34,928 nt of DNA, taken from contig JBLRXB010000003.1 of the NCBI GenBank assembly GCA_047920915.1, forward strand, positions 1 through 34,928. Direction: 5' to 3'. Numbering within the stretch: position 1 is the first letter of the stretch; every line of letters starts with the position of its first letter. The notes under the pieces are model-generated. The model ran no database searches. It was given only the letters and a program-made list of their open reading frames with translations, and had not been told where the DNA came from. Position numbers and translations under genes: made by a program. This DNA is from Kiritimatiellia bacterium (GTDB lineage: Bacteria > Verrucomicrobiota > Kiritimatiellia > UBA8416). Of the stretch, positions 5,763 to 17,771 are shown in pieces.

Positions 5763-6590
5763 TTAAGACTGGTACGTGCGGTGGCTGGGAAAGCTGCCGC
5801 AGATGCGCAGGCTGGTTGCCTCGATGCTCGCGGCCTGCAGTGCGCGTTTGACCGGCGTGCTTTCGGCATCGGCATCCAAATCCACTAAAAAGGCGTATTC
5901 CTGGCGTCGGCCGCGAATGGGCCGGGATACCAAGCGCGACAGGTTGATGTTTTCGGTCTGCAGGGTGCCCAGGAACCGGTACAGGCTGCCCGGGGTGTTA
6001 GGAAGGCATAGGGCCAATGTCGTCTTGCGTATACGTGGTAACCGTGCGGGGCGGTGGGCGATCACGATGAATGTGGTGACATTCGGTGTGCTGGATTCGA
6101 CCGGAAATTCGAGCAGTTCAAGGTTGAAACGTTTGGCGAGGAACCGGGAGCAGAGTGCTGCGCCATCGGGGTCGGCTGCCGTCCGGGCCGCTGCTGCCGC
6201 CGTGCTGTCGCATTCCTGCTTGTGAACGCCCGGAAGGTTGCTGTTAATCCAAGGGGCACAATGCTCCAGGGGCACAAAATGCGAGTATAATCTTTTGATG
6301 GTCTTGCCCTTGTGTCCCAGAAGTGCCAGTTTTACATGCAGGGCAATTTCCTCGTGAATATGGATCGCCTGGGTTTCGTCCAGCAATACGTCAACGGTCT
6401 CATTGATCGTTCCCCCGGAAGAATTCTCGATGGGAACAATGCCATAGGCCTTGGGGTGTCTGGCAATATAGGCGCACACGTCCAGGATGCCATCTTGCGG
6501 CAGCATGCGGCAGCCGGCAAATCGTTTTTGGGCCACCAGGTGCGAGTAGGTGCCGCTGGGGCCCAGAAAGGTAACGGTTGTATTTTTCAT
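5763..6590 (-). CDS. pheA: Prephenate dehydratase (PDT + ACT domains, no chorismate mutase domain)
   Basis: FLGPSGTYSH, GIVPIENSSGGTI, YSH, STAAAA, NVTTF, then the ACT domain PGSL...INLSRLVSRP...Y.FLVD and GSFP. Confidence 0.9.
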   Translation of the reverse strand: MKNTTVTFLGPSGTYSHLVAQKRFAGCRMLPQDGILDVCAYIARHPKAYGIVPIENSSGGTINETVDVLLDETQAIHIHEEIALHVKLALLGHKGKTIKRLYSHFVPLEHCAPWINSNLPGVHKQECDSTAAAAARTAADPDGAALCSRFLAKRFNLELLEFPVESSTPNVTTFIVIAHRPARLPRIRKTTLALCLPNTPGSLYRFLGTLQTENINLSRLVSRPIRGRRQEYAFLVDLDADAESTPVKRALQAASIEATSLRICGSFPSHRTYQS

Positions 6591-12640: not shown

Positions 12641-12696
12641 AACGGTAAATCATGAGCTTGCACCATCGTGCAACAACAAGGAAACGGGAGGCAGAG

Positions 12697-13131
12697 ATGA
12701 CGATTTACGAGTGTCGTACATGTGGGCATATCGAGTTCAATGAGGTGCCGGAAAAGTGTCTGGTTTGCCGGTCGCCGCAGACGGTTTTTCATGAAAATCC
12801 GGATGCCATCAAAAAGCCGGCAGATCCTGCCGGTTTAACGGATGGCGACAAGAAGCATGTGCCGGTCTTGCATGTGACCGATTGTGGGTTGCTTACAGGG
12901 TGCAAGGATGTGCATGTTACGGTGGGGGATATCGAGCATGTGATGGATCCCAAGCACTACATTTTGTATGTCGATTTTTATCTGGATTATCGGTTTATTT
13001 CGCGCGTTTGGCTGGCGCCCAGTGTTTGTAAGCCGGCCGCTTCCATCCATCTGGCGGTACAGAGTGGCACGGTGACCGCGATCGAGAGTTGCAATGTGCA
13101 CGGCAATTGGATGGGCGAAATCCAGCTTTGA
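12697..13131 (+). CDS. Superoxide reductase (desulfoferrodoxin-like) with N-terminal rubredoxin-like domain
   Basis: CRTC-x11-CLVC followed by the SOR ligand motifs KHVP, HVMDPKHYI and CNVHG; GGAGG Shine-Dalgarno before the ATG at 12697. Confidence 0.88.
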   Translation: MTIYECRTCGHIEFNEVPEKCLVCRSPQTVFHENPDAIKKPADPAGLTDGDKKHVPVLHVTDCGLLTGCKDVHVTVGDIEHVMDPKHYILYVDFYLDYRFISRVWLAPSVCKPAASIHLAVQSGTVTAIESCNVHGNWMGEIQL

Positions 13132-13219
13132 TGCGTGCGGGATCTACACCATCTCTAGCCACCTTCGGATCGTGCTAGATGTGGTGATTCGCAGGGAAAA
13201 GCAGGATACGCAAGTACGC

Positions 13220-13257
13220 AAAACACCCGGTTTGGTGCCAAACCGGGTGTTTTTTTT
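13220..13257. terminator. Bidirectional rho-independent terminator between convergent genes
   Basis: Perfect inverted repeat AAAACACCCGGTTTGG-TG-CCAAACCGGGTGTTTT with a T8 run on + and an A4 run on the other side. Confidence 0.9.
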
Positions 13258-13271
13258 GTGCGAATGGCTTC

Positions 13272-14171
13272 TTATGCGGCGGCGGTGCCAATCGAGATTT
13301 CGAGGTTGTCTGCAATCACATTGCGTTGCTCCAGCAGTTTTTTGCGCAGTGTTTGAATGCCTTGCGCACAGATCTGCCGGCATCTTTCACTGGATACCCC
13401 GAAGAGTGTCGACAAGTCCTTGAGGGTGGGGGTGTTCTCGTTGAAGTAGAGCATGGAGAGCATTTTGCCCGTCCGAGGCGGCAATGTGTCGATAGCGGTA
13501 AATAGATATTGGCGCAAATCTTCGTGTTCAATCGTTTCAAATGGCGTAGCGGCTTTTTCATCGGCGATGTGTTCGCTCCACTGCAAGCCATCTTCCTGGC
13601 GATTGCCAAAATCCTCGAGATGGCAAATGCCGCTTTCAGCGCTGTGCTTGAAGAGGGTAAATGCCTCTTCAGACACATTGAGTTGCTTGCGGATTGCTTC
13701 ATCCGAAATACTGCCGGCAGCCGCTTTGCGTACGGCCTCAATCTCGGCCCAGTACGTGAAGTGATGTTCAGGGATATGAATGAAGCGCGACTTTTTGATG
13801 GCCCGAATCATGTGGCTTTTAATGCATTTACAAGCGTATGTACTGAAGCGTACCGGTTTTGTTTCGTCGCCGAATTGGGCCTTGTAAGAGCGAGCCGCTT
13901 TTACGAGTCCGATGTTGCCCTCGGCGATCAGGTCGAGATTGGACAGGCGCGCCGTGGCGCGATTCAAGTGGCGGTCAAACTCTTTCAGACAATGGATTAC
14001 GAGACGCAGGTTTGCCTCGACAAGCTCTTGTATGGCGGCTTCGCGCGAGGTCTCGTCGATATCCGCGGTTTGAATTGTGACGGAAAGCTGCTGCTCGCGT
14101 TTGATTGTGATACGCGGGAAAGCCGATATATCGCGCAGGTACGCTTCAAAAGAATCTACATTACGAATCAT
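13272..14171 (-). CDS. Alternative sigma-70-family RNA polymerase sigma factor (regions 1.2, 2, 3, 4)
   Basis: DSFEAYLRDI (1.2), LVEANLRLV and DLIAEGNIGLVKAA..RFSTYA (2), IHIPEH (3.0), TLKDLS..FGVSSERCRQI (4.2). Start is 14171 (GAGG SD) or 14183. Confidence 0.92.
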   Translation of the reverse strand: MIRNVDSFEAYLRDISAFPRITIKREQQLSVTIQTADIDETSREAAIQELVEANLRLVIHCLKEFDRHLNRATARLSNLDLIAEGNIGLVKAARSYKAQFGDETKPVRFSTYACKCIKSHMIRAIKKSRFIHIPEHHFTYWAEIEAVRKAAAGSISDEAIRKQLNVSEEAFTLFKHSAESGICHLEDFGNRQEDGLQWSEHIADEKAATPFETIEHEDLRQYLFTAIDTLPPRTGKMLSMLYFNENTPTLKDLSTLFGVSSERCRQICAQGIQTLRKKLLEQRNVIADNLEISIGTAAA

Positions 14172-14226
14172 ATTCACCCTCATGATTTACTCGTTGTACA
14201 GTAAAACGGTACGTGCCCTTGTATAT

Positions 14227-14243
14227 AGCGAGGATCGTGCCAA
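14227..14243 (-). promoter_or_regulatory. Sigma54 (RpoN) -24/-12 promoter of the sigma-factor gene
   Basis: Minus strand reads TTGGCACG-ATCC-TCGCT against the consensus TGGCACG-N4-TTGCW; exact GG-N10-GC spacing; 44-56 nt before the candidate starts. Confidence 0.8.
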
Positions 14244-14252
14244 AAAAGCCTG

Positions 14253-14272
14253 TAAATGATTGATATATTTTT
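14253..14272 (-). promoter_or_regulatory. IHF-binding site
   Basis: Minus strand reads AAAAATA-TATCAA-TCAT-TTA, an exact WATCAA-N4-TTR with a 5' A-tract, just upstream of the -24 element. Confidence 0.7.
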
Positions 14273-14350
14273 AAGTGGCTATCTAGCAATGGTTTGTGTC
14301 TATTATGATTTGTTTGTCCTCGTCTCGCATGGCCTGCCAATGGGTGTATG

Positions 14351-14387
14351 TGTGTATTTTGTGACACATCTGTATAAACAAGTGTGT
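14351..14387. promoter_or_regulatory. Candidate upstream activator (bEBP) binding sites
   Basis: TGT-N10-ACA at 14351-14366 and an imperfect dyad ACACATCTGT-ATAA-ACAAGTGTGT at 14364-14387, about 110-145 nt upstream of the -24 element. Confidence 0.4.
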
Positions 14388-14513
14388 TCTTTAGTATGCA
14401 GCATGGATGTTGTGGTGCAGGGGAAATCTGGGCGTAGGGTGTTGCGTGTCGTACGCGCATTGTGTATGATGGTGGCCCTTATTGGGTGAGGATCGTGGCA
14501 GGAGGCTTCAGAC

Positions 14514-15269
14514 ATGGCAGAACCAGTGATTTCGGTATCGGATTTATGCGTTTCGTATGGCAAGCGTGGACGATTGGTCAAGGCTGTTGATGGTATTTCG
14601 TTCCGTGTTTCCGCGGGTGAGTGCGTTGGGTTCATTGGCGTTAATGGTGCGGGTAAATCGACGACGATCAAGACGTTGATGGGCTTTTTGTTTGCATCAT
14701 CTGGTGAAGCACGCGTATTCGATCAACCTGCCGGCACGCCTGAAAGTCGCTTGCGGATCGGGTATTTGCCGGAAGTTGCCTTGTATTATCCCTTCATGAA
14801 AGCGCGTGAGCTGCTGGAGCTGTACGGGGGATTGAGTGGTCTCGACAAGGCCGCCCTCCGGCAGCGCATTCCTGTGGTGCTGGAATCTGTCGGACTTTCG
14901 GGCAAGGCAGAGGTTTTGTTGAAGCAGTTTTCGAAAGGGATGCAACAACGTCTGGGTATTGCGCAATCGATCATTGCCGAGCCGGATGTGTTTATTTTTG
15001 ATGAATTGACATCTGGTTTAGATCCATTGGGGCGTCACACCTTGCGCAGGTTGTTGCTGGATCTGAAGGCCCATGGTAAGACCATTTTCTTTAGTTCCCA
15101 CGAGCTGGTAGAGGTGGAAACATTGTGTGATCGTGTGTTAATGATCCACCAGGGGCGTATTTTGCGTGATGCAACGCTATCGGAGTTACAGGCCGAAAGC
15201 GGTGCAAAAGGGCTGGAATCCTTTTTTATCGAACTGATTCATGCGCAGGCGCAAGGGGTCGTGGTATGA
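14514..15269 (+). CDS. ABC transporter ATP-binding protein (ABC-2/PilH-like)
   Basis: GVNGAGKST, FSKGMQQR, FIFDELTSGLDP and SSH. Confidence 0.95.
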   Translation: MAEPVISVSDLCVSYGKRGRLVKAVDGISFRVSAGECVGFIGVNGAGKSTTIKTLMGFLFASSGEARVFDQPAGTPESRLRIGYLPEVALYYPFMKARELLELYGGLSGLDKAALRQRIPVVLESVGLSGKAEVLLKQFSKGMQQRLGIAQSIIAEPDVFIFDELTSGLDPLGRHTLRRLLLDLKAHGKTIFFSSHELVEVETLCDRVLMIHQGRILRDATLSELQAESGAKGLESFFIELIHAQAQGVVV

Positions 15270-16818: not shown

Positions 16819-17771
16819 ATGGATGGCGGCACAAGGATCTGGTCGCGGCTATTGTTCTGCTGGTGCTGCTGGGTGTCGTTCCGCTGCTGGCCTTGCGTGT
16901 GGATCCACGGGGCTATGATGGTGGCCGATCGCGTGACATGGTTGCCCGTTCGCAACGGAATGCGAGTGCCATCGCGACATTGCTCGGCGAGTTGCGAACC
17001 TCGATGAGTGATTTGTTGTTTGTGAAGACGGAACGTTATTTGCACAGTGGTGTCGGGTATGTTGCGCATCATGAAGAACAGTTGCTAACGGTAGAGGCCA
17101 TGGAGACAGATGTTGCTGAGCACCAATCTCAGGTAGGTGAGGATTTGTATGTTGATCGTGCTGCTTCCCATGCTGGTACGCAGACTCTCATACCTGCCGG
17201 GGAGCGTGATTATCGGGGGTTCATCGGGCGCATGCATCGGCATGTCAAACCATGGCGCGATCCGTCCAAGGCGCATTTACACACGGATGGCACGCAGTTG
17301 CTGCCGTGGTTCCGGATTATGACACGCAATGATCCAAACTATGTTCCAGGCTACAGCATAGGGGGCTGGTGGGTTTCCCTTCATGACGAAGAAGCATCCC
17401 TTGCCTTTATGAACGAGGGGGTTCGCAATAATCCTGCGGCATTTCAAATCCGGTTGGCACGCGGATTCCTGTTAATGCGGAGACTGCGTCAACAAGGCGA
17501 GCCGGATCCGGTTTTGCTGGAGAATGTATGGACAGATTTTCGGGAGGCCGTTCGATTAGGGCTGGCACAACGGCCCGATTCTGCATTAGGGTCACCCGAG
17601 GAGCAACCTGGTTGGTCTGCATTTCAGGAGCAGGATTTATGGTCGGCTTGCCAGGCGCTGGTGATTGTGGAGATGCGCTATGGGGATGCGGCATCAGCCC
17701 GGCAGCTTGCAGAGGCCTATTTTGCCTTGTTTCCTGAAAATCAGGCCTTGGCGAATTTGTTGCATGAGTAA
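16815..17771 (+). CDS. Membrane-anchored His-rich/TPR-like hypothetical protein (PilG-like position)
   Basis: N-terminal hydrophobic helix; His-containing segment; helical LLPWFRIMTRNDP..GGWW..EGVRNNP repeats; ATGA overlap. Confidence 0.75.
   Translation: MNGWRHKDLVAAIVLLVLLGVVPLLALRVDPRGYDGGRSRDMVARSQRNASAIATLLGELRTSMSDLLFVKTERYLHSGVGYVAHHEEQLLTVEAMETDVAEHQSQVGEDLYVDRAASHAGTQTLIPAGERDYRGFIGRMHRHVKPWRDPSKAHLHTDGTQLLPWFRIMTRNDPNYVPGYSIGGWWVSLHDEEASLAFMNEGVRNNPAAFQIRLARGFLLMRRLRQQGEPDPVLLENVWTDFREAVRLGLAQRPDSALGSPEEQPGWSAFQEQDLWSACQALVIVEMRYGDAASARQLAEAYFALFPENQALANLLHE

Follow-up and report, generated by a model that had tools for sequence, protein, structure and literature searches.

A predicted sigma-54 promoter with a tandem-dyad enhancer upstream of a lineage-specific sigma-70-family gene in a Kiritimatiellia bacterium, and its candidate FHA-domain activator

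The stretch of DNA considered here (the window) comprises 34,928 nucleotides (nt), positions 1 to 34,928 of contig JBLRXB010000003.1 of a Kiritimatiellia bacterium (assembly GCA_047920915.1), a metagenome-assembled genome (MAG) of 2.26 Mb in 325 contigs that is 84.7% complete. Within it, an intergenic region at 14172-14513 separates two divergent genes, a sigma-factor open reading frame (ORF) of 299 amino acids (aa) that runs from 14171 to 13272 on the minus strand, and the gene of an ABC-transporter ATPase. A preliminary description of this region had proposed that a bacterial enhancer-binding protein (bEBP) acts here through sigma-54 on the gene of an alternative sigma-70 factor. That the downstream gene encodes a protein of the sigma-70 family is confirmed by the presence of Pfam regions 2 and 4, and its start codon at 14171 agrees with the starts of the orthologues, which carry GGAG-type sites at the position occupied here by a Shine-Dalgarno-like GAGGGTG. 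Immediately 3′ of the gene lies a perfect GC-rich hairpin that probably acts as a terminator in both directions, for the sigma gene and for a convergent desulfoferrodoxin gene; as the latter lies beyond the hairpin, the sigma gene forms a single-gene unit. In Rfam, the hairpin gave only a sub-threshold small-RNA match, and the 3′ end of the sigma gene, adjacent to the hairpin, gave a second one, likewise sub-threshold. All of the support for a cascade that is presented below comes from sequence comparison.

The putative sigma-54 promoter, TTGGCACGATCCTCGCT, is located on the minus strand at 14243-14227, with the T of its TGGC 71 nt upstream of the ATG. The GG and GC doublets of 14242-14227 are exactly 10 nt apart in a TGGCAC-N5-TTGC-like element, the sole deviation being a C for T two bases before the GC, and transcription is predicted to start at about 14216. 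Within the window alone, this -24/-12 match is not above chance: a scan with TGGCACGNNNNTTGCW that allowed up to two mismatches gave 10 matches against a shuffle mean of 8.5, and the two matches with a single mismatch were the promoter site itself and a site at 17455, inside a long ORF span. The element is significant because it is conserved across orthologous loci. A search of 40 relatives gave clear orthologues of the sigma factor (37-78% identity) in 21, and a scan of one genome per species gave 32 sigma loci that contain these 21; one sigma locus, a 3′ fragment, was dropped, and the 32 that were analysed are the window's own and 31 others with upstream DNA. The conservation of GG-N10-GC upstream of orthologues, which the preliminary description had named as a check, held across an order-level group, with TGGC-N9-GC being found upstream of the sigma gene in 32/32 loci. 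Its distance to the start codon was 53-102 nt in the 22 loci with chosen starts, and up to 154 nt in the other ten, where it was measured from the start of the protein match. Alone, this loose pattern is weak (0.16 expected per 260 nt). The tighter TGGCA[CT]-N7-GC occurs in 27 of the 32 loci against 0.0068 expected per 260 nt (control DNA taken from these loci, 228,392 nt in all, has 6 matches), and TGGCA[CT]G-N6-GC[AT] in 22, with 0 control matches. The columns conserved across the 32 loci (A in 27, C or T in 31, G in 29, TT in 28) belong to the element and not to its flanks, and the lineage consensus of the sigma-gene promoter reads tTGGCACGcTTCyrGCTAt.

Further upstream, the words GCATAC and GTATGC are common to the orthologous regions (24 of 31 loci) and resolve into two tandem 18-nt dyads related to TGCATAC-N4-GTATGCA. 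Their starts are separated by 29-35 nt, and relative to the T of TGGC they begin, in most relatives, near -148 and -116. The window's own pair occupies the interval 110-160 nt upstream of the -24 element and is set back from the promoter by 9 nt more than the pairs of most relatives. Not counting one locus whose upstream DNA amounts to only 58 nt, 29/31 loci had two tandem sites whose mismatches to TGYRYAC-N4-GTRYRCA added up to at most 5, as against 0/620 shuffles. The preliminary description had placed activator dyads at 14351-14387, which does fall inside this conserved enhancer, but the units are 14400-14383 and 14368-14351 and not the ACACA...TGTGT repeat that it had seen; the right half-sites have drifted to ACACAC in the window's own genus, and this gave rise to the repeat.

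It could be argued that the -24/-12 motif is a chance match or some element other than a promoter, and that the gene is read from a sigma-70 promoter that went unrecognised. The chance-level match within the window would fit such an explanation, as would the -12 element, which is non-canonical: immediately before the GC, 25/32 loci have A or G in place of the T of the general consensus, and the dnaK promoters of the same genomes (see below) have T at this position, unlike the sigma-gene promoters. The explanation is nevertheless extremely improbable in view of the conservation statistics, with the conserved columns confined to the element, and of the conserved enhancer at a fixed distance upstream; moreover, no sigma-70 consensus promoter was found in 13100-14600, where 1.7 would be expected, and no Rfam family matched the promoter or leader.

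Two further checks named in the preliminary description, for rpoN and for bEBP genes in the genome, found both. RpoN is represented by one complete protein of 476 aa with AID, CBD and DBD (441 bits for TIGR02395 against a cut-off of 277), and there are four complete bEBPs, two of them REC-AAA+-HTH proteins (one encoded beside a histidine kinase, the other beside a T2SS-F gene), one GAF-AAA+-HTH and one FHA-AAA+-HTH protein. The last of these, with an HTH_8 domain, matches PF00498 at residues 51-113, PF00158 at 140-306 and PF02954 at 409-448, and has the motifs GETGTGK (Walker A), GAFTGA and DEI (Walker B) besides the HTH_8. An FHA domain implies the recognition of a phospho-threonine partner, and five genes with a Pkinase domain are present in the genome. 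In 10 of the orthologue matches of this FHA-bEBP (among loci L105-L110 and L113-L117), one stop codon was flagged inside the match, which may stem from an alignment that runs beyond the true ends or from something else.

The dyad is common to the sigma gene and the FHA-bEBP gene, and it is for this reason that we infer the FHA-bEBP to be the cognate activator of the sigma promoter. In the window's own genome, the FHA-bEBP gene is preceded by a perfect palindrome, TGCATACagatGTATGCA, 85 nt before its ATG, and by a second site 34 nt away, 51 nt before the ATG. The dyads lie 30-100 nt before the FHA-bEBP start codon; among the orthologues, a site with at most 4 mismatches to the strict palindrome was found in 17/23 loci (at most 2 mismatches in 11/23), and a degenerate dyad with at most 2 mismatches within 160 nt upstream in 18/23, against 18/1150 shuffles. 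When five relatives were searched genome-wide, the dyad turned up with at most one mismatch in 10 places, 4 upstream of a sigma gene, 5 upstream of an FHA-bEBP gene and a tenth that has no sigma-54 motif within 200 nt; in two of these five genomes the FHA-bEBP gene directly follows the sigma gene. The window's own genome contains the degenerate dyad with at most one mismatch 18 times, of which 4 are intergenic: one at the sigma gene, two at the FHA-bEBP gene and one elsewhere. No such dyad was found at any other bEBP gene of this genome. It has 2642 loose sigma-54 motifs; a dyad pair whose mismatches add up to at most 4 accompanies the sigma promoter and none of the others, and totals of 5-6 are reached at five motifs, about as many as chance predicts. 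The shared dyad at both genes, the adjacency in two genomes and the genome-wide specificity of the dyad would be in keeping with a direct action of the FHA-bEBP on the sigma promoter. As for the remaining intergenic dyad, TGCGCGCCATCGTACACA, it lies at 20509-20526 of contig C1, in about 1.3 kb without a called gene and with no sigma-54 motif nearby. When neighbouring genes were clustered, nothing was conserved beyond the genus level, either around 26 FHA-bEBP loci or among the ORFs flanking the 32 sigma loci, and neither set gave an operon partner, kinase or anti-sigma candidate. Different genera have different neighbours of the sigma gene, and its upstream module therefore travels with it.

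Sigma-54 promoters were also predicted at other genes. A near-canonical one (TTGGCAYG-N4-TTGCT) precedes dnaK by 52-109 nt in 28/31 loci across the order, and further upstream lies a tandem dyad of the GnGACAT-N3-TGnCnC type, unlike that of the sigma gene; this difference implies a different bEBP. A loose pattern for the dnaK enhancer was run over the window's own genome and then dropped, as its matches were no more than noise and did not include the dnaK sites. Two copies of dnaK are present in the MAG (3326-5242 of contig C38 and 1096-3021 of contig C184), with 92% protein identity, each with its own sigma-54 promoter, whereas the relatives show one; they could be a real duplication or stem from a second strain that was binned together. 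Other intergenic sigma-54-type promoters of this genome point to hsp20, a type III glutamine synthetase gene and fliW, the FliW protein being present although FlhA was not found in the genus.

The evidence on the dyads and on dnaK bears on a further alternative, namely that a real sigma-54 promoter is driven by another protein (the GAF-bEBP or either NtrC-type response regulator, of which there are two), or that the dyads are bound by some other factor, for instance a repressor that the sigma gene and the FHA-bEBP gene have in common. Three further complete bEBPs are indeed available in the genome, and the sigma gene occurs without a detected FHA-bEBP in 6 genomes and the reverse in 7. That the dyad precedes the FHA-bEBP gene in 18/23 loci and, with at most one mismatch, was found at no other bEBP gene of the window's own genome argues against another driver, and so does the adjacency of the two genes in two genomes. 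Tandem sites about 32 nt apart at a fixed enhancer distance are the usual layout for a bEBP, and the dyad upstream of the dnaK sigma-54 promoters in these genomes is another one, so that another driver or a shared repressor is unlikely, and activation by the FHA-bEBP is the preferred assignment.

The factor encoded by the sigma gene is the only sigma-70-family protein found in the genome besides RpoD and four proteins resembling extracytoplasmic function (ECF) factors. Regions 1.2 to 4 are represented in it, r1_2 being precomputed for some relatives, a profile comparison with PDB aligned residues 8-284 with SigA, and an alignment to SigA chains spans residues 7-278. Among the solved structures, a profile of the family ranked SigA/RpoD (110-127 bits) and RpoS (105) above SigB, RpoH (80) and FliA (59), and no equivalog cut-off of NCBIfam was reached (RpoS 98.7 against 378.7, RpoH 92.5 against 323.1, FliA_WhiG 82 against 189.6). 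By these scores it is a lineage-specific sigma-70 family outside any curated equivalog. In the region of residues 112-117, the T-W-W of SigA region 2.3 is replaced by C-K-C, so that K115 and C116 stand opposite the tryptophan pair. Within the family, conservation is at least 90% both for C114 and for K115, the latter being nearly invariant. The absence of the tryptophan pair suggests a different way of reading the -10 element.

Alternatively, the factor might be the functional equivalent of a known one, and the circuit an ordinary RpoH heat-shock or FliA flagellar circuit. Some sources name relatives of the protein "sigma-32 factor", the RpoH and FliA models gave partial scores, and sigma-54-type promoters of the same genome precede dnaK, hsp20 and fliW. 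Set against this are the missed cut-offs and the profile ranking just described. FliA as the identity of the factor was ruled out, since it falls below the FliA_WhiG cut-off and does not co-occur with FlhA (PF00771), which is found in 5/41 genomes and in 0/5 of the window's own genus, the sigma gene being found in 22/41. A role in heat shock is unlikely, because dnaK itself would be read from its predicted sigma-54 promoter, which means that the central heat-shock gene does not need the 299-aa factor. Taken as a whole, this explanation has a low probability, and the assignment to a family of its own is retained.

The preliminary description had also included a site for IHF. An exact consensus match, TATCAATCATTTA, is present where it was placed, at 14265-14253, flanked by A- and T-runs, and so the sequence claim stands; the functional claim fares less well. 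The pattern WATCAANNNNTTR has 1 match in the window against 0.83 expected and at least one in 57/100 shuffles, and a match is present in 2/32 orthologous loci and absent from 30. If the full architecture of the preliminary description were correct, IHF would bind there and bend the DNA to bring the activator to the promoter. Only 10 nt separate the end of the site from the -24 element, a place that the holoenzyme itself would occupy. Of four PF00216 (HU/IHF) matches in the genome, which is incomplete, the best is a 99-aa protein. It resembles the IHF models most, but its 62-70 bits fall short of their cut-offs (111-120), and no HU/IHF homologue of the genome attains the cut-off of an IHF model. 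The presence of this protein and the exactness of the match notwithstanding, the participation of IHF is very unlikely, and the match at 14253-14265 is probably a chance one. The coordinates of all features are collected in Table 1.

Table 1. Features of the sigma locus, the candidate activator gene and other loci with predicted sigma-54 promoters
Feature	Position	Strand	Remarks
Sigma-54 -24/-12 promoter TGGCACGATCCTCGCT	14227..14242	-	GG 14241-14240, GC 14229-14228; conserved in orthologous loci
Predicted transcription start	14216	-	placed 12 nt after the C of the -12 GC by the usual sigma-54 spacing
Enhancer site 1 TGCATACTAAAGAACACA	14383..14400	.	1 mismatch to TGYRYAC-N4-GTRYRCA; starts 158 nt upstream of TGGC
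Enhancer site 2 TGTGTCACAAAATACACA	14351..14368	.	3 mismatches to degenerate dyad; starts 32 nt after site 1
Exact IHF consensus match TATCAATCATTTA	14253..14265	-	WATCAANNNNTTR; A- and T-run flanks; probably a chance match
Shine-Dalgarno-like GAGGGTG	14175..14181	-	3 nt before ATG; direct sequence reading
Sigma-70-family factor gene, 299 aa	13272..14171	-	Pfam Sigma70_r2 + Sigma70_r4
GC-rich hairpin, perfect, 15 pairs	13220..13253	.	A-run and T-run flanks; immediately 3′ of sigma gene
Desulfoferrodoxin gene	12652-13131	+	convergent with sigma gene
ABC-transporter ATPase gene	14514-15269	+	
FHA-AAA+-HTH_8 bEBP gene	own genome, contig C86, 4445-5818 (upstream region 5852-5903)		
dnaK promoters, own genome	C38:3237-3252 (L076:638-653); C184:1009-1024 (L077:610-625)		relatives: L131-L160
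hsp20 promoter, own genome	L078:805-820		intergenic, sigma-54-type, pointing to gene
Type III glutamine synthetase promoter, own genome	L075:628-643		intergenic, sigma-54-type, pointing to gene
fliW promoter, own genome	L079:629-644		intergenic, sigma-54-type, pointing to gene
Dyad + sigma-54 promoter in sigma-less relatives	L161, L163, L166, L167, L168		genomes G038, G028, G033, G032

The core of the preliminary description, in which a bEBP acts through sigma-54 on an alternative sigma-70 gene, is supported by the presence of rpoN and of bEBPs, by the conserved promoter and by the conserved enhancer at the expected distance; to these, comparison adds an FHA-bEBP gene with a dyad in common with the sigma gene. 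The proposed mechanism is as follows. The sigma gene would be transcribed as a single-gene unit from the sigma-54 promoter, which would remain closed until an enhancer-binding ATPase opens it. The FHA-AAA+-HTH_8 bEBP, as the most likely activator, would bind the two tandem dyads as dimers, loop to the sigma-54 holoenzyme and drive the formation of the open complex, and it probably also regulates itself, to judge from the same dyads before its own start codon. The input, as suggested by the N-terminal FHA domain, would be a phospho-threonine mark from one of the Hanks-type kinases of the genome and not a histidine-kinase phosphorelay, and the resulting sigma factor would redirect RNA polymerase to a regulon of its own. 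This whole model, leading from the FHA-bEBP via sigma-54 to a lineage-specific sigma-70-family factor, is considered probable.

Besides the non-canonical -12 element, several observations weigh against the model. At one locus (L067), a good promoter and dyads are both missing; the enhancer has drifted in the window's own genus, to the point that even the degenerate dyad is matched by site 2 with 3 mismatches; and 5 FHA-bEBP loci have no good dyad. With the genome being 84.7% complete, more dyad targets may exist. The loci of the sigma gene and of the FHA-bEBP gene, when clustered, revealed no linked kinase or phosphatase gene, so that it is the FHA domain by itself that points to a kinase input. 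Across 41 genomes, the co-occurrence of the two genes is imperfect (both in 16, the sigma gene only in 6, the FHA-bEBP only in 7, neither in 12). MAG incompleteness (63-95%) can explain this in part, not wholly. Where sigma-only genomes could be matched to enhancer loci (e.g., L045, L047 and L054), the dyads are still in place, an indication that this class stems from gaps in the MAGs. The FHA-bEBP-only class, by comparison, is real: in five such genomes the same dyad and a sigma-54 promoter precede other genes. The genes that follow in these sigma-less relatives encode a MoxR AAA_3 ATPase, DUF6785 and secretin-like proteins, duplicated 176-aa proteins with a signal peptide, and a protein with an FGE-sulfatase domain, and at L167 one dyad pair serves two divergent sigma-54 promoters. 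It follows that the FHA-bEBP predates its connection with the sigma gene and that its dedication to this gene is not universal. The homologues of the MoxR, DUF6785 and secretin-like genes in the window's own genome have upstream regions with neither a sigma-54 motif nor a usable shared promoter.

A more far-reaching reading, which is conceivable and rather doubtful, is that these small-genome Kiritimatiellae-like bacteria have a single alternative sigma factor outside the ECF class, that its master input is a Ser/Thr-kinase signal passing through the FHA-bEBP, and that the factor was inserted as an extra tier into an older circuit. In related families that lack the sigma gene, the dyads and a sigma-54 promoter stand directly before genes of secreted and envelope proteins, such as those for the MoxR, DUF6785, secretin-like and small signal-peptide proteins. 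If this reading were true, the regulon of the bEBP would have been rewired through a new sigma factor, and this factor, having no tryptophan pair of the kind that primary sigma factors carry in region 2.3, should read a new kind of -10 element.

The proposed circuit resembles several known systems. In Pseudomonas syringae and Erwinia, HrpR/HrpS, sigma-54 and HrpL form cascades in which, as would be the case here, a sigma-54 promoter with a dedicated bEBP drives a gene of the sigma-70 family. HrpL, however, is an ECF (group 4) factor, unlike the 299-aa protein with its regions 1.2 to 4, and HrpR/HrpS are without an FHA domain. The flagellar hierarchies of Vibrio, Pseudomonas and Campylobacter, which lead from sigma-54 to FliA, likewise have sigma-54 upstream of another sigma gene, but the 299-aa sigma is not FliA. 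Enhancers of the NtrC type consist of two adjacent dyads more than 100 nt upstream of a -24/-12 promoter, with the same sites before the regulator's own gene. The two-dyad layout described here is similar, and the sites before the FHA-bEBP gene suggest self-regulation in the same manner; the site sequence and the sensory domain differ, and there are no nitrogen genes at the sigma locus. FHA-domain enhancer-binding proteins of Myxococcus xanthus were reportedly the subject of work by Jelsbak, Givskov and Kaiser in 2005. They would share the FHA-AAA+-HTH order, which implies a Ser/Thr-kinase input to sigma-54 transcription. The present case differs from theirs in that it comes from another lineage, that the predicted target is a sigma gene and that the binding site can be read from comparison.

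In the library searched, none of the titles and abstracts listed dealt with transcription control in Kiritimatiellae-like bacteria or with the sigma-54/FHA-bEBP system described here. A survey of 2025 predicts sigma-54 promoters before sigma genes of COG1191 and COG0568, and before chaperone genes in Planctomycetota and Bacteroidota (PMC12316311), the same trend as seen with dnaK here; names beginning with Kiritimatiell or Lentisphaer have 0 occurrences in it. Among the closest parallels is the Rrp2-RpoN-RpoS pathway of Borrelia burgdorferi, in which a bEBP is reported to activate sigma-54, which directly transcribes rpoS (PMC2940757, PMC3037356, PMC11109971). Both cases have a second sigma factor of the sigma-70 family and of RpoS length, and a sigma gene that would be the main or only target of the bEBP. 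They differ in that Rrp2 has a receiver domain (NtrC-like) where the candidate activator has an FHA domain, that a clear tandem-dyad enhancer lies at a fixed distance here, that the factor is not an RpoS equivalog, and that the organism belongs to the Planctomycetes-Verrucomicrobia-Chlamydiae (PVC) group and is not a spirochaete.

The locus offers a testable module that was obtained from comparison alone, made up of a promoter, a two-site enhancer with a readable consensus, a candidate activator and a new sigma family. As cultures of the lineage are few, it is of value that the dyads, the bEBP and the promoter could be reconstituted in E. coli. Placed beside the systems named above, it would add an FHA-gated case to the short list of cascades from sigma-54 to sigma-70 and no new category of regulation: the logic of the circuit is familiar, and what appears to be new is the FHA-gated activator, the enhancer derived from comparison and the sigma family.

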